Of a stretch of DNA of 64,000 nucleotides, positions 3,005 to 55,150 are shown one piece after another. How positions within the stretch are numbered: position 1 is the stretch's first letter; the number at the start of each line of letters is the position of its first letter. The stretch is from a virus (Duplodnaviria; Heunggongvirae; Uroviricota; Caudoviricetes). Under the pieces are notes generated by a model. That model ran no database searches. It was not told the DNA's origin and saw nothing but the letters and a program-made list of their open reading frames with translations. The stretch lies in IMG/VR virus record IMGVR_UViG_3300020202_000067, positions 17,335-81,334 of that record; one strand, 5' to 3'. A program made the position numbers and the translations under genes.

Positions 3005-3013
3005 GGTTTTGAA

Positions 3014-16300: not shown

Positions 16301-19300
16301 GGGCGTGCAGGACGGCACCCAGCTCACCCGTGCGCACCATGAGCAATGGGCCAAGGGCTTCGAGCGCTACTTGGCAGAGGGCAGCGCGCCTTCACCCCAG
16401 CTCCAGTCCGCCTTCGAGCGCTTCAAGACTTGGCTGATTGAAATCTACCGGTCACTGACCTCCATTGGCGACAAGGAGATCACCGACGAGGTCAGGGGCG
16501 TGATGGATCGGCTGCTGGCCACTGACCCAGAATTGGCCTTGGCCGGGAAGGCACCGCTTGTTGGCCCAGCCGGGCTAACGGGCGACATCCTCGGTGCCGT
16601 GGTGCCCAGGTTGCAGGAGGCCGGGTTCGATGGCCTAGTGACCAAAAGCGTGGGCGGGAAGACCCGCGCCATGGCTCTTCCTGCCCAGCTAGCCGGGAGG
16701 GACAAGCTCGGCGCAGCCATGGAGGCCACCGAAACGGGCGTGCCCTCACAGGTAGTGGCCCAGGGATTGGTCGGCAGCGCGGAGGACGCCGCGAGCCGCG
16801 CAGGCATTGCGCGCGTGCTGCGGACCGATGACAGCCCGGTCGGGGCGACCGGCGAAGGTGCTATAGCACCGGGACCAGATGTCTATGTCAACTTCGGCCG
16901 TATCAATGAACCTGACGACGTCAAGCAGGTTATCCGCGACCTGGCAGACGCCTTCAAGGGCGAGATCAATGAAGCACGGCGCGGTGTGCAATCCAATGAG
17001 GAGACAATCAGACTGGCGGATCGCCTTGGCATGGGGGTTGACGAGCTGCTGCAGCGTCAGAAAGGTCAGCCCTTCAATGCTGAGCAAGCGCTAGCGGCAC
17101 GGCGGCTGTTGAACACGTCGGCAGAACAGCTTCTCGGCTTCGCGGAAAAAGCTGCGCTGCCGACAGCAACGCTTGCCGACCAATACAATTTCCGCCGCAT
17201 GCTCGCCGTGCATCAAGCGATCCAGACTGAAGTGATTGCGGCAAGAACAGAGACCGCGCGTGCACTTCAGTCCTGGGCGATCCCGGCTGGTGGCAATGTC
17301 GAGATGGCACGCAACATTCAACAACTCATCGATGGAGCTGGTGGCGCAAAAGTGACGCAAGAGCTGGCCAAGCGCATGGCCATTCTCAAGGCGCAAGGTT
17401 TGCCGCCTGCTGCCATTGACACTATGGTCAAACGTTCCTGGGCGGCTGTTTCTATGGACATGGTTAAGGAAGCCTTCGTCCTTGGCCTTCTGTGGAACCC
17501 CAAAACGCATGTCGCCAACTTCGCTTCCAATCTTGTCACCGCTGCGCAACAGGTTTACGAGCGTTCAGCCGCAAGAGCGATAGGAGACCTTCTCGGCACA
17601 GCAGTCAGTGGTTCACGCGTGGTTGATGGAGAGGCCATCGCCATGATGTATGGCTGGGTGACGTCGCTCAAGGACGCATTCCGCCTGGCAGGACGCGCTG
17701 CCGTCTATGGTGAAACAGGCCAAGCCATACCTGGCTCCAAGATGGACGAGCGCATTGGCGCGATCTCTTCTCGACACATTGCTGAATCACGTGGTTACTC
17801 TGCTGTTGAGACTCAACAGTTCGTCAGCTCAACAGCAGGGCGCGCCATCGACTTCATGGGAACAGTTGTACGTTTGCCAGGCAATGCTCTGGCAGCAGGC
17901 GACGAATTCTTCAAGACTATCGGCTATCGCATGGAGTTGCATGCACACTCTTTGCGGCAGGCGACAGACGAGGGCTATACTGGACCAGACTTGTGGAAGC
18001 GTATGATGGAGATCGTCAATGATCCTCCTGAGCACATTCGCATCGCGGCCGCCGACGCGGCGCTTTACGCGACATTCCAATCTAAGATGGGAGAGATCGG
18101 CACAGCAATCAGCATGGCGCGCAATGCTGGCAGCTACAATCCAACTTTCGCAGTGCTGCCATTCGTAAAGACGCCTACCAATATTCTGCGCTACACTTTC
18201 GAGCGCACGCCGCTTGCATTCCTTGTGAAGCGCTGGAGAGACGACATCGACGCTGGCGGCGCGCGGCGCGATCTGGCATTGGCTCGCATGTCAACTGGCA
18301 CTGCCATCATGGCTGTTGCTATGGACTTTGCAGCCAATGGACAGATCACCGGCACCGGTCCGCGCGAGCGCGGCCGCAAGGAAGCATTGATGCGCGACGG
18401 CTGGCAGCCATCCAGCGCTCTTGTTGATGGAAAATACTACTCCTTCAACCGTGGCGATCCACTTGCGATGCCGTTCACTGTCATGGGACAAGTCGCCGAG
18501 ATCATGCGTTCCAAGGATCTTGCACCAGAAGACTTTGATCAGCTTCAAGAGATCATGGGCGCGGCCATAGGCATCATGTCAACGACTGTTGTTGACAAGA
18601 CTTACTTCCAAGGCATTTCGCAGATCATCATGGCGATTGAGAGCTCAGAGAAAGGTTCTCAAGCTGCAGCCAATTGGATGAACCGCCAGGTCGGCGGCTT
18701 TGTGCCATTCTCTTCTGCGCAAGGAGTGGTGAAGCAATTCACGGATCCTGTGCAGCGAGAAGTCAACTCGATGTGGGATGGCATTCAGAACCGCCTGTTC
18801 TGGATGTCAGAAAATTTGCCCCCTGTTCGTGATCTCTGGGGCGAGGAGCGTAAGCCGGAAGAAGTGTTCGGTAAGGCTTATGATGTTCTGTCGCCAGCTC
18901 AGGTCACCAAACAGAAGGGCTCGCCCATTGATCAAGAGATCATTCGTCTTGGCGGCTCCATTGAGCGCATCAAGAAGAAGGGCGAATTCATGGGGGCTGA
19001 TGTCAACTTTTATGAATGGCCGAAGGTGTATGACGAATACGTGCGCCTCGCCGGCAATGAGCTCAAGCACCCTGCCTGGGGCGTGGGGCTCAAGGATCTA
19101 TTGAATCAGGTTGTTTCTGGCAAGCATGAGTTGTCTGAAGTCTACAACTTCATGTCGAATGGACCTGAAGGCGGAAAGATGGCATGGCTCAAGAATCAGG
19201 TTTCAGCTTATCGCCGTTTGGCGCAACAAGAGATTATGAACTCAGACAAGTTTCCTGAATTTGTTAATTACGTCAATACGCGCAGACAGCAACGGCAGGA

Positions 19301-19343
19301 GTTGAAGATGCCGCCCGAAATTCTCGAACAGATGAGGCAGTGA
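10359..19343 (+). CDS. giant polyvalent internal virion/ejection protein (gp16-position)
   Basis: Uninterrupted 2994-aa ORF directly after the SLT protein. Contains a P-loop zeta-toxin-like kinase segment and an HEAGH metallopeptidase-type motif. C-terminal third is long and hydrophobic/helical. Confidence 0.85.
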   Translation: MAPPIKTPFPVADYADQNPTTMDILKQNEEQIELANEGLIPPKSMAEEIAPQLDELRASEVRQASLTPEDIFIPPSNPKEDDIASQYIQMAQARDNDSAIEEFKERMRARASTIAPNGRPMLPNADGSVSTEESITITDPRINGGAPTNIPSIWGGQRPPYNAGTPEAENWAVEKALESKQRFQSYRSIEDAVQAARQRSLELGKAIERGRLEQRSEVKKATDTINAMESLIAGKPIKSVTEAQSMTELFDIIMEHAQKTNWSDAPGAVAKDIGKGFFVEGVPQAVGGVNLAVKNTSRALAGLADWMTTNVGGEIPVPSTGNKKLDQAIQRPLDFITELLPGDEGIKKAETFTGIFIKEGARFLTGFIPLFRAGKAAGAGNITTSIAAGSLTDAITQTPEEPNLSNLIEKVPPLRNPVTEFLATDPNDPEALNRLRQGIEGAGMGVLTEGLLWGIRALANARKAVPELEAQRQLHGEVGDGTVVAATKDEPYTAVGGASAKNPFVLDLTSEVAREETERRLRAILTGQADGPVIKPSTRPLQDDSFGTRIEKEEVLGLIERKARPEEISAHPLIRRAMERQKRDLEAPQIRIEDITPEHRAQRKFDFNGEEVVGYDKAVPRLAANAEAYAGSNGAAANKEAIILLGPPAAGKTTIGDKLARELRYAVVDADDVKATLPEYAGGVGSTRVHPESTLINAMVLEELARSGKNMVIPKLGHGSEPIVALVQKLKELGYTVDVVNVRMDAEENYRRMISRFIHTGRLIEENYFKQIGDLPTQTYERLKREGLVREAANYDNSTAAPKRLEASERLAAAIERSGGGGDAASIGGAGARQAPPQIERLRQAAEPVYNDMLAQLRATGMKEEEALANAAVVAARYAARAERLGTGKTAMDLYKESGLRVERSDAPPSSERFIVNADEPMPFRPTKEQTLEQRRGWFGTGYWIKDGKLHKIEEGALGPHGDHDGWISIADNANKLGVDEKKSAAFQIATYNFADASKNKWVDKFFKKHPEYAQAADEGTPLQDFDFFDSDFKKFFGMEAHEALAWRPEGMFRMRKWPDGQLTIDNIDAIKDTRKFIEQVMAQEPELLNGVKRISVASAKDDSYIDLTVEQFLDGKWKGKGYSFEQRGAAPPFFSVIDRAVGGASFDKGSAGQWLGLLKNTAGVKQEEIKWRGIDKFLEDRKGQMVTKAEIEEWLRISEVKIKEIRKDNEKAGFIDEDEVMAEADRIYRRWSSGENVTADYREVEAGPNIAFEVIDNRGIVIERVYSPESARAIAEDFNRAINEQDFGALVDWSQIAAEQIAKSDAAEVTRHGTHILPGPNSKYREILLTLPDNDRVVPNPAKRVWWVDVPDSPAPAMAFSEEQVAQIRSRYPEGTNLQVREENFTGVDVADSGGTFRVDDHWHEDNVLAHARVTERELGTGQKGYQWVNTGSGNKSQIFPSLEAANGYYWSLPDNLKSQIKLAHVEDRKVKTLFIEEIQSDWHQQGRERGYKEPNAKAEHERLTQAHKDLIPEINRVIEENDRLGFDTVHEARGALWRDGVERWEFSKPEDLEIAKKYVDALNALREFEAKKSDKAVPDAPFKKNWHELMLKRMIKLAADEGYDQIAWTTGKQQNDRWSLSRELKRIEYDEATKQLRATPKNGREELHWRDVDGERLKEIVGAEMARKILETQPSSVRQVAQIENDIVKYVREFTGDDNFTFPAANEPGKWSIITNLERNKPAMKRLVQEWQDASNGRLVGKRILEGEDLELGGQGMKSFYDRMLVNAANDLGKPHKAQVKQGEVVTGQSLETVFRGEAPTAAKLNEVVEDLLDKQSQGILTGFSRSEIKHIAIIADAMEGGKTFDQAMQVHGLGSTYALMQKVGYDVDMRPAVKTEPVHVLEITPELRRTAREDGFRLFQNPRGWEDAPGGPDYFGHPKGIIDIKSNEAVVKLFRTADASTFQHEAGHLFFFELMRDAAMDAAPKQLKDDLDTVFRWLGVQDGTQLTRAHHEQWAKGFERYLAEGSAPSPQLQSAFERFKTWLIEIYRSLTSIGDKEITDEVRGVMDRLLATDPELALAGKAPLVGPAGLTGDILGAVVPRLQEAGFDGLVTKSVGGKTRAMALPAQLAGRDKLGAAMEATETGVPSQVVAQGLVGSAEDAASRAGIARVLRTDDSPVGATGEGAIAPGPDVYVNFGRINEPDDVKQVIRDLADAFKGEINEARRGVQSNEETIRLADRLGMGVDELLQRQKGQPFNAEQALAARRLLNTSAEQLLGFAEKAALPTATLADQYNFRRMLAVHQAIQTEVIAARTETARALQSWAIPAGGNVEMARNIQQLIDGAGGAKVTQELAKRMAILKAQGLPPAAIDTMVKRSWAAVSMDMVKEAFVLGLLWNPKTHVANFASNLVTAAQQVYERSAARAIGDLLGTAVSGSRVVDGEAIAMMYGWVTSLKDAFRLAGRAAVYGETGQAIPGSKMDERIGAISSRHIAESRGYSAVETQQFVSSTAGRAIDFMGTVVRLPGNALAAGDEFFKTIGYRMELHAHSLRQATDEGYTGPDLWKRMMEIVNDPPEHIRIAAADAALYATFQSKMGEIGTAISMARNAGSYNPTFAVLPFVKTPTNILRYTFERTPLAFLVKRWRDDIDAGGARRDLALARMSTGTAIMAVAMDFAANGQITGTGPRERGRKEALMRDGWQPSSALVDGKYYSFNRGDPLAMPFTVMGQVAEIMRSKDLAPEDFDQLQEIMGAAIGIMSTTVVDKTYFQGISQIIMAIESSEKGSQAAANWMNRQVGGFVPFSSAQGVVKQFTDPVQREVNSMWDGIQNRLFWMSENLPPVRDLWGEERKPEEVFGKAYDVLSPAQVTKQKGSPIDQEIIRLGGSIERIKKKGEFMGADVNFYEWPKVYDEYVRLAGNELKHPAWGVGLKDLLNQVVSGKHELSEVYNFMSNGPEGGKMAWLKNQVSAYRRLAQQEIMNSDKFPEFVNYVNTRRQQRQELKMPPEILEQMRQ
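12264..12758 (+). other. zeta-toxin-like P-loop kinase domain
   Basis: ILLGPPAAGKTT (nt 12294-12320 encodes GPPAAGKTT), followed by VVDADDVKATLPEY. Resembles the Walker A plus D-x-D-xFR..HPxY layout of zeta/AAA_33 kinases. Confidence 0.6.
16197..16211 (+). other. HExxH motif (HEAGH) in giant protein
   Basis: FQHEAGHLFFFEL at about aa 1947. This context is reminiscent of metallopeptidase domains described in phage polyvalent proteins. Confidence 0.45.
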
Positions 19344-43616: not shown

Positions 43617-44155
43617 AGAATTCCCTTTTTAATGAGTTCAACACAACAGCGCTTGAGCGCCATGACGTCAACCTTGGCGCGATGAGCGCCCTCGAACTTC
43701 TCACCGAACAACAACTCGTGTAGGCCTGAAAGATTCAAGCGGTGACCTTTCAGGTGCACAGTCTGTTCCACAGTGCAGATCCTAATCTTTGGCCAATTAA
43801 CCTTGAGACCGCAACGTTCCGCCTCAATGTCGATCATCTCGATATCGAACGATAAGTTGTGCCCGATAACGATAGGTGATGCCTCGATCAGCTTAATGAT
43901 CTTCGAAGCTACATCCTTGAACGTTGGTGCGTCTTTCACATCCTCCCATTTGAGCCCTGTGATGGAGGTAATCAACTCAGTAATTGCCTCTGGTGAAGAG
44001 GGGCGTACAAGCTGATCGAGCTCATTGATCTTCTTGTCCTTAGCCAAGTCCCAAGTGCAGCCGTAGAATTCGATGAGCTCCGGCAGCTTGTCGTTCTTGA
44101 CTGTGCGGTTCTCAATGAGGCCGGTGGTCTCTGTGTCAAACAATAGAGCCTTCAT
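43613..44155 (-). CDS. dnaQ: DnaQ-like 3'-5' exonuclease (DEDDh)
   Basis: LLFDTETTGL (Exo I), GHNLSFDIEM (Exo II), HRAKVDVMAL (Exo III). Confidence 0.85.
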   Translation of the reverse strand: MKALLFDTETTGLIENRTVKNDKLPELIEFYGCTWDLAKDKKINELDQLVRPSSPEAITELITSITGLKWEDVKDAPTFKDVASKIIKLIEASPIVIGHNLSFDIEMIDIEAERCGLKVNWPKIRICTVEQTVHLKGHRLNLSGLHELLFGEKFEGAHRAKVDVMALKRCCVELIKKGIL

Positions 44156-44595
44156 CCTGGCACCTTGATCCTTGGGCCATCACAACTGACGACTGGCTTG
44201 TGCTCAATATCGCTCCAATCAAAACGCCAGAAAAGTCCGTCTGGCATCTTGAAGATCACCGGAAAGCCTGTTGTCGCTTCGTCTCTGTAGTCATTATTCG
44301 CTTGCTCCTCATCAACTGATTCCACCATAGCGCAATAAACACCGGCATCATGGATAGAGTCGCGATGCGGCTTGCCTGCTTCAATGGAGACAGCATAACG
44401 CGAGAGCTTGACGACGATTAAAGAGAACAGGTGGAAGCGGTCGTGATCCTCCTTGGTCTTCAACGTCACGCCATTCGGAAAGAGTGCAGCGAAGGCTCCG
44501 CCAGCGCGCTTGTAGTTGTCGCCATAGACCTTGTTGCGCTCGCGGAAGGTGTTAGCGCCTTCAGCCAAGATGTCAGCCGCTGTCCGCTTAGTCAT
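44152..44595 (-). CDS. DUF1599-like all-alpha (MazG-superfamily-like) protein
   Basis: Start moved to MTKRTAAD. RNKVYGDNY...VVKLSRY...HRDSIHDAGVYCAM matches the DUF1599 pattern as I recall it. Confidence 0.5.
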   Translation of the reverse strand: MTKRTAADILAEGANTFRERNKVYGDNYKRAGGAFAALFPNGVTLKTKEDHDRFHLFSLIVVKLSRYAVSIEAGKPHRDSIHDAGVYCAMVESVDEEQANNDYRDEATTGFPVIFKMPDGLFWRFDWSDIEHKPVVSCDGPRIKVPG

Positions 44596-45184
44596 TGCTA
44601 TTCCCCTTGGGGTGGATGCGGCGGATGTACTTAATGTAGGTTCCGGGCGCGAGCTCAAAGATGCGGTAGTGGTACTTGCGTCCGGCGCCTCCGCCAGTTG
44701 TAAGATATTCACTGGTGTGACTCTGCGTAAATGTCTCCTGGACGAGCGTGCACCCATCCATTGCAGGAAAATCTGCGCCGTCATCGAGGTGTATTCCTAC
44801 ATGGGAGATGAACTCTCTTCCAATGCCCCATAGAGGATTTCCTGCTTGGTTGTAGCTCACCGGAGCGCCCATTGCATAATGATCTCCAGAAGCTAGGTGC
44901 CAGTGCCTGCCTTCAATGTAAGTCAAGATCTCAAGCTCAATGCCGAGAGAATAGTTGAACTGCAGACGGCCCTTGTTGATGCACCACTGGCCGTCCGGGA
45001 ACAGTGACTTGGCGGTCACGACGTCCTCGACCCAAGGCTCTGTGTCAAGACCCAAGAGAACCTTGATGCGTTCTTCTTGGTCCTTGGTCCTTGCGTAGAA
45101 GGCAATCTGATCAATCTTCATCGGAGGTTTTTCTAGTTTCACGTTCACCACCTTCGTTTTCCAGTTGTCCGGAGAAATGTTCAT
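44588..45184 (-). CDS. VOC (glyoxalase/epimerase)-fold protein
   Basis: Start at MNISPD (ATGA coupling to the SDR gene). KIDQIAFY, IELEIL, ISHVGIHLDD and YRIFEL give a paired beta-alpha-beta-beta-beta pattern. Confidence 0.5.
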   Translation of the reverse strand: MNISPDNWKTKVVNVKLEKPPMKIDQIAFYARTKDQEERIKVLLGLDTEPWVEDVVTAKSLFPDGQWCINKGRLQFNYSLGIELEILTYIEGRHWHLASGDHYAMGAPVSYNQAGNPLWGIGREFISHVGIHLDDGADFPAMDGCTLVQETFTQSHTSEYLTTGGGAGRKYHYRIFELAPGTYIKYIRRIHPKGNSND

Positions 45185-45879
45185 GGCCCACCATACGGAA
45201 TGTCGCACCCGGCGAGATATTTGTGGCGCTCCTTGGAGGAGAGAAGGAATGCGATGAACTCAGCGATGATAGCTGGTGGAGTTTCCTCGCCTGCAGGCAA
45301 AGCAGCAAGTTGATATTCTCTAGCTTGCTGTTCCGTCCACCCTCTGAGCTGCACCACGCGCCGGTCGATCTCTGCACTCATGTGCGTGCCTGACATCTTG
45401 TTGGGAGAGACGCTGAACACGGTGATGTTGTGCGTCTTCTTCAACTCACGCGCCAACTGCTTTGTCAGAATGGCGGCCGCGCCCTTGGAAGCGTTGTAAG
45501 CCGCTGAAGATGTCATTGGCACATGGCTGGCATTGGAAACGATGTTCACCACCGTCCCATCACGCAGCTCTTCAAGAAGCGCCTTGGTGCAAAGGAAGAT
45601 GCCCTTGGCATTGGTGTCCATCACATCATCCCACTCCTGCTCTGGAACGTTTGGCAGGAAGTTGATGCGATTGATGCCTGCACAATTGATTAGAACATCG
45701 ATCTTGTCCAGCCCCCGCTTCAAAAGATCGAGCCGAGCCTGCCCAATAGAAAAGCTGCTCGACACATCAATGTGGTGCTTCAGCGACCAGTCAATCACTC
45801 TCCAGCCATTCTTCAAGAGATGGTTGGAGATCGCTTCACCCAAGCCACTGCTCGCGCCTGTGATAACTGCTGTCTTCAA
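45181..45879 (-). CDS. short-chain dehydrogenase/reductase (classical SDR)
   Basis: TGASSGLG, NCAG and S...YNASK motifs. 232 aa. Confidence 0.85.
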   Translation of the reverse strand: MKTAVITGASSGLGEAISNHLLKNGWRVIDWSLKHHIDVSSSFSIGQARLDLLKRGLDKIDVLINCAGINRINFLPNVPEQEWDDVMDTNAKGIFLCTKALLEELRDGTVVNIVSNASHVPMTSSAAYNASKGAAAILTKQLARELKKTHNITVFSVSPNKMSGTHMSAEIDRRVVQLRGWTEQQAREYQLAALPAGEETPPAIIAEFIAFLLSSKERHKYLAGCDIPYGGP

Positions 45880-46319
45880 TTCTGCCTCCCATGCACCAAG
45901 AGCGCTGTGATACCAGCCTCTCTGAACGCTGCAACGACATCTTCTCTGTCGTCAATGATCAAGGCAACTTCATCTTTGAACCGCTCGCCGAAGCGTTCGG
46001 CGGCCAGCTTAAGCTTTATTTCCGCTGCCGGATGATAAGCCTCGTCCGGCCGCATAAGCAGCTCATCGAACATGGCGCCATGCTTGACGAGCAGCTCCAT
46101 AGTAAGCTTGCGCCACTTCTCCGGTCGTGCCGTAATGCCAACGATGTACATGCCGCCAGCGCGCATTGCATTAATCATGTTGACAACGTCATGGATCGGC
46201 TCGTCATCCTTGGAAGCGGCATGATAAGCGTCCCATCCTCCAGGGCCACCGATCATGTCGTCACGCCAGAAAGCATTCGACACTGTATGATCAATGTCAC
46301 ACAAAACGATCTTCCTCAT
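45876..46319 (-). CDS. HAD-superfamily phosphatase (PNK-phosphatase/5'-nucleotidase-like)
   Basis: CDIDHTV (DxDxT), GITAR (motif II), IIDDRED (motif IV). Confidence 0.65.
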   Translation of the reverse strand: MRKIVLCDIDHTVSNAFWRDDMIGGPGGWDAYHAASKDDEPIHDVVNMINAMRAGGMYIVGITARPEKWRKLTMELLVKHGAMFDELLMRPDEAYHPAAEIKLKLAAERFGERFKDEVALIIDDREDVVAAFREAGITALLVHGRQN

Positions 46320-46776: not shown

Positions 46777-46966
46777 CTTCAGCTCCATAGATCTTCATTC
46801 GGACTTTGTGTTCAGTTCTCATAGTGCGGTTCATCTCTTCTGTCATTTCATTTTGCTTCTCCAATGCGTCAGCGATGCGTTTGAGGGAAATTGCTACAGA
46901 TCTGTCATAAAAAGCCTTCCCCGAGCTGAAACTGCCAGCCTCAAATAATTCAACATCTCTGTTCAT
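46745..46966 (-). CDS. hypothetical protein
   Basis: 73 aa track ORF. The ATG shares one base with the upstream stop. Confidence 0.5.
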   Translation of the reverse strand: MNRDVELFEAGSFSSGKAFYDRSVAISLKRIADALEKQNEMTEEMNRTMRTEHKVRMKIYGAEDGNQEEPRQV

Positions 46967-47382
46967 CAGAACTGTTTACCTCCTTCTTTCAGACGGTTCT
47001 CAGGCTTGTGATCTTCACGCTTTTCATTGTACCAGACCTTCTCGAGCACAGCGCCAGAGAGATCAAGTCTGAACGCTCCTCCATAGTCAAAAGCGCGAAT
47101 GAATAGATCTCCCAGCTCGACCTCCTCGCTCTTACGGTGCGGCAAGTGATCATCCATCTTGTCCTTACGCACACCTTCGAGCATCTCAGATAGTTCAGAA
47201 TGCTTGAGCGCAATCATCTCACCTTTGTTTCTTTCGATCCGCTCTCCCGTTCTTGGGTCCTGCCACCACCTTGCGTTTTTGTGGTGCAGGATCGCGGCCA
47301 GCCAGTTGAGGCTTTGCGCGTGTTGAACGAGCAGTCTGTTGATCGTCTCTTCGCTGAACCGGCTCAAGTCTGGTAAGCTCAT
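46966..47382 (-). CDS. MazG-like nucleotide pyrophosphohydrolase
   Basis: Start at MSLPDL. ALKHSELSEMLEGVRK ... EEVELGDLFIRAFD ... EKVWYNEKREDH fits the all-alpha NTP-PPase E..E/E..D pattern. Confidence 0.6.
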   Translation of the reverse strand: MSLPDLSRFSEETINRLLVQHAQSLNWLAAILHHKNARWWQDPRTGERIERNKGEMIALKHSELSEMLEGVRKDKMDDHLPHRKSEEVELGDLFIRAFDYGGAFRLDLSGAVLEKVWYNEKREDHKPENRLKEGGKQF

Positions 47383-47545
47383 CTTCCATCTCCACTCCGA
47401 CAATGTAAAGTTCATTACGCAGCTCGGTGAGTGACATCCTGCTTAGCCGTCCTGAAGTTACGGCCAAGGTCGAGGTGACTTTGGAAAGACGTTGATGCCA
47501 CCTCACCCAAGCGATGATTTTCTCAGTAATGGTCTCACCCCGCAT
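47219..47545 (-). CDS. hypothetical ORF (only the 5' ~130 nt are unique; the rest overlaps the MazG-like gene)
   Basis: The only ORF covering 47416-47534. Its C-terminal two thirds are low-complexity and out of frame with the MazG-like gene. Confidence 0.3.
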   Translation of the reverse strand: MRGETITEKIIAWVRWHQRLSKVTSTLAVTSGRLSRMSLTELRNELYIVGVEMEDELTRLEPVQRRDDQQTARSTRAKPQLAGRDPAPQKRKVVAGPKNGRADRKKQR

Positions 47546-47741
47546 GCTTGACCATCACTTCGATATTCAATACTCTGAGTTGCTTAAGCACACTTTCAGC
47601 GCCTTCCCGATAGCCCTGAAGTCTTGCTTGCGCCTCCGCTTCATCTCTTGTGCGTTTGAGCTCATGAAGTTCTTTCAACAACTCCTCAACTTTCTTTTGA
47701 TCGCCACATATTTCTTGGGCGAACAGTTTATAGTCTGTCAT
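47535..47741 (-). CDS. hypothetical coiled-coil protein
   Basis: 68 aa track ORF. Confidence 0.55.
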   Translation of the reverse strand: MTDYKLFAQEICGDQKKVEELLKELHELKRTRDEAEAQARLQGYREGAESVLKQLRVLNIEVMVKHAG

Positions 47742-47863
47742 GACAACGCCCTCATCTGATCGATCAACTTGATCATGTGCGTCTTCTGTTCAGCAGAGAT
47801 TGTGTTGTCAATTCCTGGAAACTGAGAAACAGGAATTGATCTGACGACTTCTCCACGCATCAT
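47738..47863 (-). CDS. small protein (41 aa, not in track) ending in the same 12 aa as ThyX
   Basis: MMRGEVVRSIPVSQFPGIDNTISAEQKTHMIKLIDQMRALS. ATGA overlaps at both ends. Confidence 0.5.
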   Translation of the reverse strand: MMRGEVVRSIPVSQFPGIDNTISAEQKTHMIKLIDQMRALS

Positions 47864-48825
47864 TGCGCCGGAACCGCGACTGGTGTTGAACTTGGCAGAA
47901 CCATAACATTAACCTTGCCTGTCTCTACAGCCTTCATGAGAGCATCGGCTCGCTCCTTCTCAGCCAGAGCCAACAGCACATCACGAATTTGCGCTGGCGT
48001 GAAGTTGTCAGGCAATTGCTCAAACAAGCGCTTGACACCAATGCCTTCATTCGAGCGTCTTGCCGCTTGCTCCTCAGCTATCTGCGTCAGCAATTTTTGG
48101 CGCTTGCGGTCCTCTTCAGAAGCCATGCGTTCAGCAATAGCGTTAAGCACCTTGGCGTCTGGCAGCACTTCGCGCAGAAGCACCGGCATGAAGGTGATTG
48201 CGCCCTTGGCCTCTGTATCCGTGAAGCCAAGCTTGATGAGATCATTGTTCACGGCGCGAACGACTTCCTCCATCATGCGCTGTTCAACGTCCGCGCGCCG
48301 CTCAACGCTAGCGTCTGCCCATGGAAATGAGGCGATTGCGTCTCTGACCGCGGCCCTTGCGGCGGGAACAATAAGATTGCGTTCAAGTGCATCCTCGTCG
48401 CCAATGCGCTGCAGGATCTTCCATGCGACTGAAGGGTTGATGGAGTAGGGGAAGGAAGCTTCCACCTGCACCGGGTTATGATCCTTAGACATCGACACAA
48501 TGGTCGGGCCGTCTGCGTCTTTGGCCTTGGCTGAGAAGTCAACGGACCGGCGCTGGATGGAGATCTTGGTGACGTCGTACATCGGGTTCATGAAGCGCAA
48601 CCCTTCAGGATAGGCTGTCTCCTGCACCGCGCCGAACCATTGGCCAACGCCAACATGGCCTGTGGAGACAGGGCTGATGGACATGATCAATGACCAAATG
48701 GCAGTGACCACCACACCTGCAACAAACCACAAACCAGCCAGACCTCCGCGACCGTCCAGCAACGAGAAAAGAGTCGCAATCAGAACGATAAAAGCGATGA
48801 TGCCTACACCAACAAGAAACAACAT
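47860..48825 (-). CDS. SPFH/band-7 (prohibitin/stomatin-like) membrane protein
   Basis: 321 aa. Two N-terminal TM helices, an SPFH-like core, then an A/E/R-rich coiled coil. Confidence 0.7.
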   Translation of the reverse strand: MLFLVGVGIIAFIVLIATLFSLLDGRGGLAGLWFVAGVVVTAIWSLIMSISPVSTGHVGVGQWFGAVQETAYPEGLRFMNPMYDVTKISIQRRSVDFSAKAKDADGPTIVSMSKDHNPVQVEASFPYSINPSVAWKILQRIGDEDALERNLIVPAARAAVRDAIASFPWADASVERRADVEQRMMEEVVRAVNNDLIKLGFTDTEAKGAITFMPVLLREVLPDAKVLNAIAERMASEEDRKRQKLLTQIAEEQAARRSNEGIGVKRLFEQLPDNFTPAQIRDVLLALAEKERADALMKAVETGKVNVMVLPSSTPVAVPAQ

Positions 48826-48835
48826 GTCTTCCTCC

Positions 48836-49594
48836 TCAGGAAAGAGCTCTCATCTGGTCGATCAGCTTGATCATGAACCTCTTCTCCTCGATTGAGATCG
48901 GGAGTTGTCTGATGTGATTGTCAAGATCATTCGCTGCCTTATCGAACGTTCGCTCGATAAACAAGTCGATCCAAGGGTGCACGGCGCGCACCGCAGTCTT
49001 CATGTCCTCAAGCACGTCACGGTATTCGCCCTGGGTGCGGGATGAGGAGCGCTTGCGCACCACATCAACAAACGTGCGCATGTTCATCTTGGCGACGATG
49101 TTGGTCAAGATGTTGGTGGGCAAGATGCCGCGTGCGTCTTCGATCGCAGCGCCATTCTTAATTAGCTCCTTGTAAACTGTATCAGTGAACGACATGCCTT
49201 GATCATAGATATGTTGTAGTCCTTCACTCTCAACGATGCTCGGCCCTGTCAGGTAGTCCCACCCCGGACCCTCGCTCACGTCCAAAACGCGCATGGTCTG
49301 TTGAGCAAAGCTGGCGGTGCGCGTGCGCACAAACTGGTGCGTGAAGGCGCGCGTCACATCCTCAATGACGAAGGTGTAGTCAACAAACTCCCAACTCGAT
49401 GGGATCGTATTGGCCATGTATTCGAGCTCCTTCCAGAGCTCAGCGATCGGCATGTCGAGGTATTTGCGCAAGCCTTCCGGGTTCATGGTGAGGCGCGTGT
49501 TCTTGGTGAACACAAGCAGTGCCGCCGCATAGTGGCTGGCATCCAGCCGCCCAGACCCGGTGTAGTCAAGCAGTGAGACCTTCAGCTTCTTCAT
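48836..49594 (-). CDS. thyX: flavin-dependent thymidylate synthase-like protein (divergent signature)
   Basis: Start at MKKLKVSLLDYTG. Signature RTRTASFAQQTMR versus the canonical RHRxxSxxxxSxR. About 30-aa C-terminal extension. Confidence 0.7.
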   Translation of the reverse strand: MKKLKVSLLDYTGSGRLDASHYAAALLVFTKNTRLTMNPEGLRKYLDMPIAELWKELEYMANTIPSSWEFVDYTFVIEDVTRAFTHQFVRTRTASFAQQTMRVLDVSEGPGWDYLTGPSIVESEGLQHIYDQGMSFTDTVYKELIKNGAAIEDARGILPTNILTNIVAKMNMRTFVDVVRKRSSSRTQGEYRDVLEDMKTAVRAVHPWIDLFIERTFDKAANDLDNHIRQLPISIEEKRFMIKLIDQMRALS

Positions 49595-50273
49595 CGCTCT
49601 CTCCATAAACTCTCTCAAGCACCTGCCGGACCTTCATGAGATCCATCTTGTCGTCCACTGTCCGCACGCCGCTTTCCATGTCGATGTAGTACGGGCCGCG
49701 CGCATTCATCTTGACCAGTTCAGCAACAACTTTGTCAGGGTTGAGGCCGCCTGAATAACCGTTGATGCCTTGCTTGTTTTCAAGATAGCGAGGCCAATGC
49801 TCTGGTCGGAGACCTCTTCCGCCTGAAGGATCATACAACCAATCTACCCGAGGATCAGTCGGCATCGCCGGTAATTGATGCTGCAACACCACGCGCACGC
49901 CATACTTCTTGCTGAACTCTACAGCATGGTCTTTCCAAAAGACATCTCCTGAAACAGGACGATAGTTGACCTGCACCCTCTGGAAACGCGACCATGGTAT
50001 GCTTGGACTGACAGGGTCAAGATCGCCGGTGTCGATGATCTTCTTCGCAAAGTAACCACAGATGTGCGCGGAGAGCGGCAACATCGATCTGGCCAGCTCC
50101 TTCACGTATGCGTAATCTGGGTAGCGAGGATGATTGCCGCTCTTGGTCGGCGAGAAGAGCACACCCCATTCAATGCGGCCGAGGTTCTCACGCGTGATCA
50201 CTTCAGCGTCGTTGATGTAGATGCTCTCATCGATGCCGGTGAAGGTGATGTGGTTAGGGAGCAACATTGCCAA
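49566..50273 (-). CDS. TrpF (phosphoribosylanthranilate isomerase)-like TIM-barrel protein
   Basis: Collinear with TrpF blocks: ITFTGID, EWGVLF, VQVNY, LYDPSGGRG, YSGGLNPDKV, IDMESGV. The TrpF catalytic Cys position is Thr. Confidence 0.5.
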   Translation of the reverse strand: MAMLLPNHITFTGIDESIYINDAEVITRENLGRIEWGVLFSPTKSGNHPRYPDYAYVKELARSMLPLSAHICGYFAKKIIDTGDLDPVSPSIPWSRFQRVQVNYRPVSGDVFWKDHAVEFSKKYGVRVVLQHQLPAMPTDPRVDWLYDPSGGRGLRPEHWPRYLENKQGINGYSGGLNPDKVVAELVKMNARGPYYIDMESGVRTVDDKMDLMKVRQVLERVYGESDEEAEGLTA

Positions 50274-50526
50274 ACCTCATTTGCCCGATGGTCCTTGCAT
50301 CAAGTTCTTTTACCCGCTCTTCCAATTTCTTCAGCCTTTCAACTTCATCCTTGCCTTTAAAAGAGCCACAAAAGTCGTCCTTAAAGGTTAATGGCCAATT
50401 GGCGCTTTTCCAAGATCCAGGAGCCATTTCTTCTGCGCCACTCTTAGGAGGAGCGCCGTGACAGAACCCATATCCCTCCTTCCAAGGTGCAAACCAAGAA
50501 CACTTTTCACAATTGTTGTTGTTCAT
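50254..50526 (-). CDS. small Cys-rich protein
   Basis: CEKCSWF...GFCHGAPP...WPLTFKDDFCGSF, then a coiled-coil tail. 90 aa. Confidence 0.55.
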   Translation of the reverse strand: MNNNNCEKCSWFAPWKEGYGFCHGAPPKSGAEEMAPGSWKSANWPLTFKDDFCGSFKGKDEVERLKKLEERVKELDARTIGQMRFGNVAP

Positions 50527-51455
50527 CTATGCCTCGCTAGCTTGTATCCACGGTCCTTGGATGCGATCCATTTGTCAATGAGGCGGACGTCATTGACGAG
50601 GTCGTCTAGCAGCAAACCAGGACGCCACGTCGCGAAGCGTCCCAAGGAGAAGACGCCGTGCTTGTCGGTCGCCCAGTGAATGAACTCTTTGCGCATGTAG
50701 TCATCCACCGGAGCTATTTTTGCATAGCGCTGCTCCACGGCACGAGGATTTTCCACCCAAGCGCTCGAGATGCCAAGCATCGTGCAGGCTTCTCTCGCCA
50801 AGTCGTCTGCATCGATTTGACTGGCATTCACTCCAGGGATCTCGACAATGAGCTCATTGCCAGTGAGCGAAACGCGCGAGATCGGGTTGCCTGGATCTGT
50901 GACCAGGATCGAAACATAAGCGTCGCAACGCGCAACAGCAGCTCGTACATTGACACCGTGCATCCAATTGAAAAGGAACTTGTCGCGCAACGGATATTGA
51001 AGGGCATCCATCAACAAAGGCATAGGGATGGTCGAGACCGTCACCACATTCGGGTCTCTTTCTGCACCCTCCCTATAAAATTCATAGTCTGTGTCAAAGA
51101 GCGCGCGCACAGGATCAGCCATCTGCTGGATGAGATCTGGCGGAGCGATCCAACGTTCAGACGCGACGAGGCCATCAATGACGGACCGGTCTGAGCGGTA
51201 AACCTGATTGTTCTTGTAGGAATAAGCCAACGCATCCGCCACCGGGTTCAGCCACGGCAGCGCATACTTGATCATCTTCACCTTCTTGAACTCGATGCCG
51301 AGAACGTCGCCAATCTGCGGCGTGCGGAAGCGCAACACGGCTGAGTGATTGTTCGGCAGACCCTTTTGCTTTTCATACACGATAGGCTGGCGATGTTGCA
51401 GCATCCGCGCCGCGAGTAGACCTGCCATCCCGGCACCTACAATTTCGAGTTTCAT
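50523..51455 (-). CDS. FAD-dependent enzyme, UDP-galactopyranose-mutase/amine-oxidase-like
   Basis: N-terminal IVGAGMAGLLAA (GxGxxG) and C-terminal GRFATWRPGLLLDD, resembling the UGM GRLxxYxYxxMD segment. Confidence 0.55.
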   Translation of the reverse strand: MKLEIVGAGMAGLLAARMLQHRQPIVYEKQKGLPNNHSAVLRFRTPQIGDVLGIEFKKVKMIKYALPWLNPVADALAYSYKNNQVYRSDRSVIDGLVASERWIAPPDLIQQMADPVRALFDTDYEFYREGAERDPNVVTVSTIPMPLLMDALQYPLRDKFLFNWMHGVNVRAAVARCDAYVSILVTDPGNPISRVSLTGNELIVEIPGVNASQIDADDLAREACTMLGISSAWVENPRAVEQRYAKIAPVDDYMRKEFIHWATDKHGVFSLGRFATWRPGLLLDDLVNDVRLIDKWIASKDRGYKLARHR

Positions 51456-52821: not shown

Positions 52822-52937
52822 GCTGCATCCTCCGGAACTTCAGCGTGGTGAAGATAGCGCACAATCTTCTCCTCAGCGAGCAGCGCGAGCCGCTCTGCTT
52901 GGGTCTCGGTCAAGCCGTTGTGATGATTTGTGGTCAT
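52818..52937 (-). CDS. small hypothetical protein (39 aa, not in track)
   Basis: MTTNHHNGLTETQAERLALLAEEKIVRYLHHAEVPEDAA. ATGA overlaps at both ends. Confidence 0.4.
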   Translation of the reverse strand: MTTNHHNGLTETQAERLALLAEEKIVRYLHHAEVPEDAA

Positions 52938-53305
52938 GAAATTGCAACCTCAAATGTGGGCCATCGAACTTGGCGCTTGGGTTGATATGGAAACGTCACT
53001 GGAACATTGCTGTCGATGTCATACACGCGTCCAGTTCTAGCATCTTTGAATACAGAACCACAACGCTTGTTCTGAAACAATGGGCCATCATCTGAAATTT
53101 CCATCCACTCATCGTCCTCACCCGTGAGCGGAGAGAGCGGACCGCCCGCAAGCAATTGCATGAACACCGGAGCGACAGCCGCGACGGCTCCTCCACTGTC
53201 CCATTGATCGAGAAACTTTTCCAAGATCTCAATCATGACTGCGCTGTCTTCCTCGCCGAAGTTGATGCGCTCAAGCTCAGCCTTGGCTTGATCGATGATG
53301 CTCAT
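52934..53305 (-). CDS. hypothetical protein
   Basis: 123 aa track ORF. Confidence 0.6.
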   Translation of the reverse strand: MSIIDQAKAELERINFGEEDSAVMIEILEKFLDQWDSGGAVAAVAPVFMQLLAGGPLSPLTGEDDEWMEISDDGPLFQNKRCGSVFKDARTGRVYDIDSNVPVTFPYQPKRQVRWPTFEVAIS

Positions 53306-54494: not shown

Positions 54495-55061
54495 CTAGAC
54501 CCCCATCCAATCATTGTCCATTGCTTCATTAGTGTCCCAGATGCAGTACTCCACCTCAGTCTTTCCGATAATGTAGTTGCGCCTCATCAAGACTTCCCTT
54601 GCATCTTGCAGCAGCTTCTCAAACCAATAGCGCGTGGTCCGCGCTCGCATGGTGAGGATCCTGTATTCGCGATCATGCCGTGTGGAGAGATGCATATTGA
54701 GGCAGTGCAACAGCTCCCGGTCGAAGAGCTCAGGAGTGTGCACATGCACGTGCGCCTCGAAGTATCCCTTCTCATCGAACGGCACTCGTTGCGGTGCGTT
54801 CGGGTGCCATGGAACGGTTTCGATTTTCTTGCGAATGATTTCAATGTCGAAGTCTTTTTGTAAAAACTCCGACTGGTCCTCCATCTCACGCCGCGCTTGC
54901 AGTTCAAGCTCACAACGAACAATTTCAGACGTGAGAAACTCACGCTTCAAGTTGCCGTCCGGAAGATGATTGTCGATGACAATCAAATCAAGCCCAGCAG
55001 CTCTGATTTTATCGCCAGGATCATTTGCCAGCGTGAGATGAATTTCATACGGCAAATTCAT
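54495..55061 (-). CDS. putative 2H phosphoesterase (LigT/CPDase-like)
   Basis: Start at MNLPYE (CAGGAGAA RBS). Two H-x-T/S-x candidates: EIHLTLA and NMHLSTR. 188 aa. Confidence 0.4.
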   Translation of the reverse strand: MNLPYEIHLTLANDPGDKIRAAGLDLIVIDNHLPDGNLKREFLTSEIVRCELELQARREMEDQSEFLQKDFDIEIIRKKIETVPWHPNAPQRVPFDEKGYFEAHVHVHTPELFDRELLHCLNMHLSTRHDREYRILTMRARTTRYWFEKLLQDAREVLMRRNYIIGKTEVEYCIWDTNEAMDNDWMGV

Positions 55062-55084
55062 GACCATTCTCCTGATTGGGAGAC

Positions 55085-55150
55085 GGCGGGAGAGTGCTCC
55101 CTTCTCCCCCGCCGCCATCACCGTCTGCGCTTTCCGTGTTGAACAGACGG
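55085..55150 (-). other. two GC-rich hairpins in 92-nt gap after the 300-aa gene
   Basis: GGCGGGAGAG / CTCCCCCGCC (55085-55113, 9/10 bp) and CCGTCTG / CAGACGG (55121-55150). Confidence 0.5.

Follow-up and report, generated by a model that had tools for sequence, protein, structure and literature searches.

A conserved flavoprotein and variant ThyX gene pair in an uncultivated phage, a candidate for thymidine modification

In the known pathways of thymidine hypermodification, nucleophiles attack an exocyclic-methylene electrophile, as in the intermediate of ThyX (PMC8989533). No ThyX- or flavin-based hypermodification route was found to be described in the searchable literature. In the DNA of Pbunavirus phages F8 and 14-1, sugar-bearing thymidines with masses of 362 and 390 Da have been reported at TG sites, with about a quarter of the thymidine being replaced and approximately 75% remaining ordinary thymidine (bioRxiv 10.1101/2025.03.31.646159). 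Pbunaviruses are among the most-used therapy phages against Pseudomonas aeruginosa, and this hypermodification, found in 2025, sets their sensitivity to END nucleases. The literature was found to name no genes behind it. Regarding ThyX itself, Ser88 and Tyr91 have been described as contacts of the flavin-carbinolamine one-carbon intermediate (PMC11940539).

The operon and its conserved core

Inspection of the window (the whole 64 kb stretch of DNA analysed) showed four minus-strand ORFs with starts that overlap the upstream stops (Table 1). This start-to-stop overlap had been described in the initial annotation, and both its junction sequences and the motifs that it quoted were located where it had placed them. 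The flavoprotein and Cys-rich genes share an ATGA overlap (50523-50526), and the stop of the latter (50254) overlaps the start of the TrpF-like gene by 14 nt (20 nt with an alternative TTG start at 50273, which gives an ORF of 235 aa at 49566-50273). The TrpF-like ATG is preceded by a GAGG 7 nt upstream. The stop of this gene (49566) overlaps the ThyX ATG (49594), which has a GGAG 6 nt upstream, by 29 nt; the ThyX ORF spans 48836-49618, with gene callers placing its start at ATG 49594 and that of the TrpF-like gene at ATG 50267. These overlaps are genuine, yet ordinary, as overlapping starts preceded by a ribosome binding site are normal in phage operons. The four genes would be translated together from a single coupled message. 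Homologues were found for each of the four ORFs and they are therefore real genes. A megablast search of GenBank phages with the region 47.8-52.0 kb gave no match, thus the phage has no close cultured relative among them.

Table 1. Features of the window discussed in the text
Feature	Position	Strand	Remarks
147-aa all-alpha domain protein	44152..44595	-	phrog_4889, 1.2e-21; in 66/80 flavoprotein loci
Short-chain dehydrogenase/reductase (SDR)	45181..45879	-	Pfam adh_short, 3.3e-37; in 23/80 flavoprotein loci
HAD phosphatase (HAD_PNKP)	45876..46319	-	In 74/80 flavoprotein loci; conserved module member
ThyX, variant clade	48836..49594	-	252 aa from ATG 49594
Variant ThyX signature RTRTASFAQQTMR	49289..49327	-	Residues 90-102 of the 252-aa ThyX; followed by Val where the canonical residue is Tyr
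TrpF-like barrel	49566..50267	-	233 aa from ATG 50267; (beta/alpha)8, related to phosphoribosylanthranilate isomerase (PRAI)
Cys-rich protein	50254..50526	-	90 aa; four invariant Cys; C-terminal coiled-coil-like tail
FAD-binding flavoprotein	50523..51455	-	310 aa; PHROG 4828; UDP-galactopyranose mutase (UGM) / protoporphyrinogen oxidase (PPOX) / amine oxidase fold; upstream partner of variant ThyX

Examination of 80 IMG/VR loci chosen by the flavoprotein identified the variant ThyX downstream of it in 78 (median gap approximately 100 bp), the remaining two being truncated contigs (78 of 78 informative loci). When 80 loci were chosen by ThyX, the flavoprotein was again present in 78, the exceptions being one truncated and one genuine (78 of 79 informative). 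The same order was found in Pbunavirus Banzai, F8 and 14-1, Wifcevirus Bas99, Vibrio phage VA-RY-3 and a Ralstonia phage, at an identity of only 30-36%. Among GenBank phages, 361 records carry the flavoprotein and 383 a full-length variant ThyX, while canonical ThyX occurs in approximately 360 further records from cyanophages, actinophages, haloviruses and Bacillus phages, with the host groups of these phages missing from the flavoprotein list. The conserved core of the operon is a two-gene unit of flavoprotein and variant ThyX, found in more than 550 viral contigs and co-inherited in essentially every phage having either gene. This near-obligate adjacency is held down to approximately 30% identity, across phage morphotypes and hosts. 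No description of any ThyX-flavoprotein pairing was found in the literature.

None of the 158 related pair-bearing loci has the TrpF-like or the Cys-rich gene, and neither do Pbunavirus and Wifcevirus; for the Cys-rich gene, the absence extends to 160 related loci. Both genes are passengers specific to the window phage, lying between flavoprotein and ThyX in a slot of variable content, and the initial annotation's view of the four genes as one conserved unit did not hold. In relatives, the inserts at this position are diverse small ORFs and MazG-like and TnpB-like genes; as these are diverse and unrelated, the slot is a hot spot for morons. Sugar enzymes were considered for these inserts and rejected on the same content.

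The pair belongs to a module for replication and nucleotide metabolism, which also includes a phosphatase, an exonuclease and a polymerase. The HAD phosphatase corresponds to the N-terminal half of the Pbunavirus and Wifcevirus protein annotated as "polynucleotide kinase" (PNK), with the all-alpha protein being a homologue of its C-terminal half (phmmer against Bas99 PNK, 8e-29) that possesses no P-loop. A role for this "polynucleotide kinase" beside ThyX as a 5-hmdU DNA kinase was rejected, given its composition of HAD phosphatase and all-alpha domain with no P-loop. The SDR matches the Wifcevirus "FabG-like" Bas99_0048 (phmmer, 2e-52). A Tad3-like anti-defence gene also lies near the pair. 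Scanning of 34 ORFs of the window with Pfam and PHROG, the larger unassigned ones included, identified no glycosyltransferase, sugar-nucleotide, 5-hmdU-kinase or ThyA-family dUMP hydroxymethylase gene, the whole genome being 81 kb long, of which approximately 17 kb fall beyond the window.

Features of the encoded proteins

The ThyX of the window was matched by Pfam Thy1 (PF02511) with 112.7 bits (E 2.4e-32, cut-off 24.8) and by NCBIfam TIGR02170 (thyX) with 86.5 bits, just under the equivalog cut-off of 87.9, and its sequence matches in the PDB were to ThyX only. The canonical signature RHRxxSxxxxSxR is altered, with its three Arg and first Ser kept and the His and the second Ser each replaced by Thr. 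Alignment to Thermotoga maritima ThyX (reference sequence checked against 1kq4) showed that the residues binding dUMP and FAD (Q75, R78, R80, R90, R147, N163, R165 and R174) are all kept, along with Q180 and E182, and that the changes are H53I, H59F, H79T, E86Q, S88T, Y91V and H178R. In the T. maritima enzyme, His53 is the residue that stacks on folate. The altered signature reported by the initial annotation was thus confirmed for His79, Ser88 and Tyr91 and extended to His53, but it is no peculiarity of this gene: the pattern R[TS]R..S....[TS].R[VIM] was found in 118 of the 120 nearest homologues (with 40 of the 120 identical to the window in this string), and the ThyX of Pbunavirus, Wifcevirus, Vibrio and Ralstonia phages likewise lacks His and Tyr. 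On these alignments, the protein belongs to a distinct clade with the signature R[T/S]R..S....[T/S].R[V/I], which is large and under purifying selection, and throughout which the replacements at His53, His79, Ser88 and Tyr91 are fixed. The Tyr91 position is Phe in Corynebacterium ThyX.

The flavoprotein carries GAGMAG (GxGxxG) at residues 7-12 and GRFATWRPGLLLDD at residues 272-285. Its closest folds are those of UGM and PPOX; a fold search placed UGM as the closest solved structure, bearing out the UGM-like fold suggested earlier, with a small lead over PPOX and amine oxidases. No match to the GLF domain (PF03275) was obtained in a Pfam scan at E up to 1, the only matches being weak ones to NAD_binding_8 and DAO, and its length of 310 aa compares to 361-510 aa for the matched UGM chains. 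Arg and Lys are invariant at many positions in the family, as might be expected if its ligand is phosphorylated. Some GenBank records label the protein as a polyamine oxidase.

An AF2 model of the TrpF-like protein (pLDDT 91.8) gave T. maritima PRAI (1dl3) as its best Foldseek match in the PDB (E 9.5e-6), and a profile search of the PDB returned only PRAI chains at E <=0.1 (0.004-0.05), over beta6-beta8. The window protein itself has no Pfam match and obtains 15-20 bits with the NCBIfam PRAI models, whose cut-offs exceed 210; PF00697 is on record for many homologues. LYDPSGG is found at residues 146-152, GG at 175-176 and SG at 201-202, and D148, G175-G176 and S201-G202 vary little or not at all in the family, aligning with LLD, AGGL and SSGVE of Pyrococcus furiosus PRAI. 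Where TrpF has its general base, a catalytic Cys at the end of beta1, the window protein has Thr12, nearly invariant in the family, as placed by matching T-F-T-G-I-D to K-I-C-G-I-T, the TrpF motif bearing this Cys. The collinearity with PRAI proposed in the initial annotation therefore stands, with PRAI as the only PDB relatives, the Asp and phosphate loops kept and Thr in place of Cys.

Next to bacterial homologues of the barrel lie genes for an IU nucleoside hydrolase (in 32 of 80 loci), for a CNT transporter and for a PfkB kinase. By sequence and neighbourhood, the barrel is assigned to a PRAI-like family, so far unannotated, that is tied to bacterial nucleoside catabolism. In 80 viral loci that contain the barrel gene, neither ThyX nor the flavoprotein occurred within 8 kb and no consistent partner was found: 19 of these loci have an ASCH-like ORF downstream, and the other neighbours are methylases, radical SAM genes and small ORFs, with methylases, radical SAM genes and the like each in fewer than 10. 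A fixed phage pathway was rejected on this inconsistency, and a class I aldolase was rejected as the family has no invariant Lys. The barrel probably isomerises a ribosyl-5-phosphate-type compound, and in the window phage it may be an add-on salvaging nucleosides or altering pentose supply.

The Cys-rich protein follows the pattern CxxC..GxC[H/R]..WP..CG, with C6, C9, C22 and C53 invariant in alignment, and an exhaustive search of 1.8 billion representatives yielded approximately 20 homologues, weak, small and without annotation. It is probably a metal-binding mini-protein, and may serve as a small metal-binding add-on.

Possible roles of the gene pair

Both F8 and 14-1 carry the flavoprotein-ThyX pair, which is a candidate for the Pbunavirus thymidine-modification machinery. 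A search for a difference in gene content around the pair that would go with the different adducts of these two phages showed none (flavoprotein 97% and ThyX 94% identical). The variant ThyX may still bind dUMP, with its flavin N5 placing a carbon on C5 via the exocyclic-methylene intermediate, and the partner flavoprotein may have as its substrate either this C5 substituent or a sugar that is to be joined to it; through these two steps the lineage would come to make sugar- or polyol-bearing thymidine in addition to thymidine. This account of a conserved pair with two passengers, in a lineage that may make both nucleosides as in F8 and 14-1, is the one we tentatively favour, at somewhat less than an even chance. 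More specifically, the UGM-fold flavoprotein and variant ThyX might constitute an undescribed flavin-based route to hypermodified thymidine that requires no ThyA-type hydroxymethylase, a proposal that is possible but rather doubtful. As options within it, a sugar-derived nucleophile could intercept either the exocyclic-methylene intermediate of ThyX or the reverse of it (flavin oxidation of the thymine methyl), or a sugar aldehyde could take the place of the one-carbon donor on flavin N5. The non-canonical pyrimidine suggested by the initial annotation is thus plausible, because pair-bearing Pbunaviruses have hypermodified thymidine, although not as a four-gene pathway, the pair alone being conserved. 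Plain dTMP synthesis and a non-canonical pyrimidine appear about as likely as each other.

Several points count against hypermodification by the pair. Modification is TG-specific and affects about all TG sites, which implies an enzyme acting at the DNA level. The arginines with which a mononucleotide enzyme binds the 5'-phosphate are intact in the window ThyX, and with approximately 75% of the thymidine being ordinary, a working thymidylate synthase would be useful to a Pbunavirus in any case. Residues regarded as strictly conserved often vary in divergent subfamilies, and the two genes could be inherited together as parts of a single, vertically descending replication module and not through shared chemistry. 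Furthermore, the scanned ORFs of the window hold no glycosyltransferase, sugar-nucleotide or 5-hmdU-kinase gene, and the lead of UGM over PPOX and amine oxidases is small.

It is quite possible, if again short of an even chance, that the variant ThyX makes plain dTMP, with the flavoprotein as a linked gene or a helper (re-reducing or re-oxidising flavin, or giving a one-carbon unit or formaldehyde) and the TrpF-like and four-Cys genes as unrelated morons. Such ordinary supply is consistent with the strong Thy1 match, the intact dUMP- and FAD-binding residues, the size of the clade and the purifying selection on it, the mostly canonical thymidine of Pbunavirus, the unrelated inserts (MazG-like and TnpB-like among them) in the slot between the pair, and the phosphatase, exonuclease and polymerase of the surrounding module. 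Use of free formaldehyde by ThyX through a flavin carbinolamine has been described (PMC8316439), and with it loss of the folate-stacking His would be tolerable. However, ordinary supply leaves unexplained why a partner of UGM/PPOX fold accompanies the variant clade only and never canonical phage ThyX, as well as the clade-wide replacement of the reportedly critical Ser88 and Tyr91, and leaves no candidate enzyme for the Pbunavirus hypermodification.

That the flavoprotein is unrelated to pyrimidines, acting in renalase-like NAD(P)H isomer repair, as an amine or polyamine oxidase or in anti-defence, with its adjacency to thyX being historical, is unlikely. The polyamine oxidase label and the nearby Tad3-like gene would suit this, but the adjacency kept across morphotypes and hosts at such low identity and the many invariant Arg and Lys residues suiting a phosphorylated ligand argue against it. 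Very improbable is the four-gene pathway of the initial annotation, in which UGM-type and TrpF-type enzymes would act at the anomeric carbon of a phosphosugar or nucleotide and, with ThyX, yield a non-canonical pyrimidine nucleotide: the translational coupling, both fold assignments, the nucleoside link of the bacterial TrpF-like family and the sugar-like Pbunavirus adducts agree with it, but the 158 related pair-bearing loci, Pbunavirus and Wifcevirus all lack the TrpF-like and Cys-rich genes, and the viral TrpF-like loci, with their varying neighbours (methylases, radical SAM genes and small ORFs), had ThyX or flavoprotein within 8 kb in 0 of 80 cases.

The pair provides two concrete candidate genes for the Pbunavirus modification and is also found in Wifcevirus, which is resistant to most restriction-modification systems tested. 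Were the favoured account of sugar- or polyol-bearing thymidine true, thymidine hypermodification by a ThyX- or flavin-based pathway would be without precedent, the pair would be a sequence marker predicting modified DNA in metagenomic phages, and hundreds of uncultivated pair-bearing phages, that of the window included, would have modified DNA. If the pair is not responsible, the analysis still defines a large signature-breaking ThyX clade, its partner protein and a PRAI-like family.

Comparison with known systems

Comparison of the flavoprotein was made to UGM (Glf; PDB 4dsg, 3hdq, 1i8t). The barrel shares with TrpF (PDB 1dl3/1nsj, 4aaj; PF00697) its overall structure, the catalytic Asp in L-x-D, the beta7 GG loop and the beta8 SG phosphate loop, but has Thr for the catalytic Cys, scores far under PRAI cut-offs and possesses invariant residues of its own family (E35, H70, C72, R99, Q101, N103, E200 and R204). 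Its context is nucleoside utilisation or phage DNA, whereas that of TrpF is trp operons. T. maritima ThyX (TM0449, PDB 1kq4/1o26, PF02511) and the window ThyX have in common the Thy1 domain, the dUMP/FAD-binding residues and Q180 and E182, with the window reading R-T-R..S....T.R-V where the canonical form is R-H-R..S....S.R-Y, and Ile and Phe replacing His53 and His59. The flavoprotein partner is near-invariably found with variant ThyX and not with canonical ThyX.

Pbunavirus (F8, 14-1, PB1) and Wifcevirus share with the window phage the flavoprotein, variant ThyX, HAD phosphatase with alpha-domain ("PNK") and DEDDh exonuclease in the same order, with the SDR shared by Wifcevirus as well. Identity is 30-37%, and the window phage differs in having internal-virion-protein and tail-protein genes, a different primase and, uniquely, the TrpF-like and four-Cys insertion between the pair. 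In the pathways of M6, ViI, SP10 and PhiW-14 (Lee et al. 2018, 2021), the starting enzymes are a dUMP hydroxymethylase of the ThyA family and a 5-hmdU DNA kinase; no gene for either was found among the scanned ORFs of the window or is reported in Pbunavirus. The likeness to these pathways would lie in chemistry on a carbon at deoxyuridine C5 by way of an exocyclic-methylene electrophile (PMC8989533), and in modification that is partial and context-dependent.

Gene block and conservation of the flavoprotein–ThyX pair

Four minus-strand ORFs, encoding an FAD flavoprotein, a Cys-rich protein, a TrpF-like barrel and a ThyX-like protein, were described in the initial annotation as overlapping start-to-stop, and this was borne out by the ORF coordinates and junction sequences. 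The flavoprotein and Cys-rich genes share an ATGA stop/start overlap (50523-50526), the Cys-rich and barrel genes overlap by 14 nt (GAGG 7 nt 5' of the barrel ATG) and the barrel and ThyX genes by 29 nt (GGAG 6 nt 5' of the ThyX ATG). The four genes are translationally coupled, and such overlaps are ordinary for phage operons. This DNA also turns up in public metagenomes (e.g. SRR7003765), on contigs that reach 81 kb and for which gene callers placed two of the start codons further downstream.

Features of the window in and around the gene block
Feature	Position	Strand	Product or remark
Internal-virion-like protein	10359-19343	+	one ORF, 2994 aa
Alpha-domain protein	44152-44595	-	
Protein adjoining SDR	44588-45184	-	198 aa
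SDR	45181-45879	-	
HAD phosphatase	45876-46319	-	
MazG-like/pyrophosphatase-type	46966-47415	-	
Direct repeat, first copy	47738-47800		63 nt
ORF sharing ThyX C-terminus	47738-47863		41 aa
SPFH/Band_7	47860-48825		
Direct repeat, second copy	48836-48898		63 nt
ThyX-like protein	48836-49618	-	public-contig gene callers: ATG 49594, 252 aa
TrpF-like barrel	49566-50273	-	235 aa; public-contig gene callers: ATG 50267, 233 aa
Cys-rich protein	50254-50526	-	90 aa
Flavoprotein	50523-51455	-	310 aa
ORF with Tad3 match	52934-53305	-	123 aa
MazG-like/pyrophosphatase-type	54495-55121	-	

Among IMG/VR loci selected with the flavoprotein (41-55% identity), a variant ThyX gene was found downstream in 78 of 80, with a median gap of about 100 bp, and in the other two the contig stops about 100-145 bp past the flavoprotein gene. 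An independent retrieval with ThyX identified the flavoprotein in 78/80 loci, the exceptions being one truncated contig and one genuine case (viral locus L247). At the latter, a variant ThyX (RTRAASYAQQSMRV, 2509-3222) is directly followed by a HAD phosphatase gene, and no flavoprotein was found within the 2.5 kb before it or the 4 kb after it. Gene order is unchanged in Pbunavirus Banzai, F8 and 14-1, Wifcevirus Bas99 (flavoprotein Bas99_0052, ThyX Bas99_0050), a Ralstonia phage and Vibrio phage VA-RY-3 (30-36% identity), the two genes being directly adjacent in the last of these. Among GenBank phages, 361 records held the flavoprotein and 383 a full-length variant ThyX, the host groups being the same for both. 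Only a distant canonical ThyX was present in about 360 others (cyanophages, actinophages, haloviruses and Bacillus phages), and these host groups are missing from the flavoprotein list.

No TrpF-like or Cys-rich gene was found in the 160 related loci, and wider flavoprotein–ThyX gaps in relatives contain unrelated small ORFs, MazG-like or TnpB-like genes. The 'four-gene operon' therefore consists of a conserved two-gene unit with two phage-specific inserts in a variable slot. Likewise, neither ThyX nor the flavoprotein was found within 8 kb of the TrpF-like gene at 80 viral loci, so that the four genes do not form a conserved set. The observation made in the initial annotation stands, and its interpretation is supported in part. 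The finding is one instance of a widespread, apparently undescribed gene pair, and no unique oddity of the window.

Properties of the four proteins

Judged by its matches, the ThyX-like protein is clearly a Thy1-domain protein (Pfam Thy1, 112.7 bits, E 2.4e-32), with only ThyX among its PDB sequence relatives and a score slightly short of the cut-off of the NCBIfam thyX equivalog model (86.5 vs 87.9 bits). The canonical signature, RHRxxSxxxxSxR followed by Tyr, here reads RTRTASFAQQTMR (residues 90-102, nt 49289-49327), and alignment to Thermotoga maritima ThyX, a sequence checked residue by residue against 1kq4, showed that the alteration is real. Q75, R78, R80, R90, R147, N163, R165, R174, Q180 and E182 are retained, among them the dUMP- and FAD-binding set, and the one-carbon site is altered. 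The substitutions are H53I, H59F, H79T, E86Q, S88T, Y91V and H178R. Ser88 and Tyr91 have been described as strictly conserved and critical (PMC11940539). The change is not private to this phage, as the pattern R[T/S]R..S....[T/S].R[V/I/M] was found in 118 of the 120 nearest homologues (40 with a string identical to that of the window), and in none of the 120 is position 2 a His or the last Arg followed by Tyr. Both residues are equally lost in ThyX of Pbunavirus, Wifcevirus, one Vibrio phage and one Ralstonia phage. The variant proteins form a large clade, subject to purifying selection, in which the one-carbon site is re-tooled whereas the site for nucleotide and flavin is intact.

Sequence searches with the flavoprotein matched only its Rossmann start and placed it in PHROG 4828, a group whose function is not known. 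Its AlphaFold model is confident (pLDDT 90.7) and has a UGM/PPOX-type fold (UDP-galactopyranose mutase/protoporphyrinogen oxidase). UGMs rank first with Foldseek (E 1.5e-9), in agreement with the resemblance proposed initially, so that 'UGM-like' is the best description at hand, though by a small margin. No GLF domain was matched, and in length the protein falls far short of UGMs. The motifs cited for this protein (GAGMAG and GRFATWRPGLLLDD), for ThyX and for the barrel (LYDPSGG, GG and SG) were all located at their positions. The flavoprotein family is very large (2536 matches), and numerous Arg, Lys, Tyr and His positions stay invariant down to 30% identity, a pattern that would suit a phosphorylated ligand.

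The TrpF-like protein was modelled as a confident (beta/alpha)8 barrel (pLDDT 91.8). Its likeness to phosphoribosylanthranilate isomerase (PRAI), with Thr for the catalytic Cys, is supported: the nearest solved structure is T. maritima PRAI (Foldseek E 9.5e-6, TM 0.5-0.6); an 82-member family profile matched only PRAI chains in the PDB at E <=0.1 (0.004-0.05), pairing L-x-D, the GG loop and the SG loop; and in the family alignment a nearly invariant Thr stands where the catalytic Cys would be. PF00697 matches are recorded for many homologues. Family members share a separate set of invariant residues (E35, H70, C72, R99, Q101, N103, E200, R204), and the family is PRAI-related yet distinct. Bacterial homologues were identified in nucleoside-utilisation loci of about 97 species. 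Across the 80 loci retained (L250-L329), neighbours included IU nucleoside hydrolase (32), CNT nucleoside transporter (19), PfkB kinases (16 + 7), xanthine/uracil permease (14), TonB receptors (14) and LacI (13) and GntR (12) regulators. The barrel probably isomerises a ribose-5-phosphate or N-ribosyl-5-phosphate compound. The Cys-less barrel is an unannotated part of these bacterial loci (e.g. L252 5001-5627, Duganella sp. 1411), usually encoded immediately 5' of the inosine-uridine nucleoside hydrolase gene. A TrpF-like gene is also carried by the cultured cyanophage Microcystis phage Mwe-JY13 (locus L002, 4986-5717), where the block around it comprises two ParB/sulfiredoxin genes, one PAPS-reductase-like gene (COG3969) and the recombination genes YqaJ and RecT, with no ThyX in the 10.7 kb covered. 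The Cys-rich family is tiny (57-112 aa), with four invariant cysteines (CxxC..GxC..C) that presumably bind metal.

Genome setting

The window is part of a phage genome, with genes for a major head protein, tail proteins, the internal-virion-like protein, a DUF5906 primase-helicase, DNA polymerase III alpha, an RNase T-type exonuclease, a topoisomerase-like protein and an SNF2 helicase, in addition to a HAD phosphatase, an SDR and MazG-like pyrophosphatases. No cultured relative was found by megablast of 47.8-52.0 kb against GenBank phages. The internal-virion-like ORF has patchy matches to internal virion or minor head proteins and a short lysin-like stretch. Upstream of the operon, a Pfam Tad3 match (PF25185) is recorded on an identical public contig for an ORF whose only PHROGs match is a group of unknown function; a counter-defence role of anti-Thoeris type is possible. 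The MazG-like/pyrophosphatase-type genes on either side of the operon region (phrog_5658 at 7e-51; phrog_1247 at 2e-05), with the split HAD and alpha-domain genes, make an unusually rich nucleotide phosphohydrolase set.

Directly behind thyX, the Band_7 gene lies between copies of a direct repeat (75% identity) that duplicates the thyX 3' end, coding for MIKLIDQMRALS, and yields the 41-aa ORF; the gene looks like an inserted moron. The SDR is strikingly similar to the Wifcevirus Bas99 'FabG-like' gene (2e-52) and the adjoining protein matches Bas99_0046 (1e-07), both belonging to the shared module in only some relatives (23/80 and 20/80 loci). The Pbunavirus/Wifcevirus 'polynucleotide kinase/phosphorylase' (L001 8272-9300; L095 7250-8122) corresponds to the window's separate HAD phosphatase and alpha-domain genes. 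Its kinase label seems doubtful, because the protein joins a HAD phosphatase to an all-alpha stretch (~100 aa) from which a P-loop is absent.

Possible roles and comparison with thymidine hypermodification

Virion DNA of Pbunavirus F8 withstands restriction enzymes with TG in their site, and novel nucleosides derived from thymidine (362 and 390 Da), which take the place of ~1/4 of T, were reported in F8 and 14-1 and read as an erythrose/threose sugar-alcohol adduct and a cyclised aldopentose adduct (10.1101/2025.03.31.646159, 2025 preprint). The preprint names no biosynthetic genes, and its authors stress that known modification genes are missing from these phages. Both phages encode the pair, the flavoprotein as ORF65 and ThyX as ORF59. 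By arithmetic, the masses are compatible with 5-hmdU joined to a pentose or tetritol with loss of water, and equally with dU plus aldose through reductive or cyclising C-C attachment, which does not tell the routes apart.

Involvement of the pair in thymidine hypermodification is a possibility that falls somewhat short of an even chance. The variant ThyX would still alkylate C5 of dUMP via flavin N5, the partner flavoprotein would act on the same C5 substituent or on a sugar, and the lineage would hence produce sugar-bearing thymidine. Against this, the near-complete TG-specific modification implies a DNA-level enzyme, T is mostly canonical, neither a glycosyltransferase nor a 5-hmdU kinase was found in Pfam and PHROG scans of selected ORFs of the window (the neighbouring 'polynucleotide kinase' being the P-loop-less fusion), and co-inheritance could reflect vertical descent of a single replication module. 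Plain dTMP synthesis with the flavoprotein as a helper is about as likely as this involvement. A flavoprotein role unrelated to pyrimidines is improbable, and the literal four-gene pathway proposed initially is very improbable.

No literature linking ThyX or the PHROG 4828 flavoprotein to hypermodification was found. As the pair offers concrete candidates for the genes behind the thymidine hypermodification of Pbunavirus, a question raised in 2025, it is worth experimental follow-up in cultured relatives. Described thymidine hypermodifications all begin with a ThyA-type dUMP hydroxymethylase, and their exocyclic-methylene electrophile is an intermediate of ThyX too (PMC8989533).
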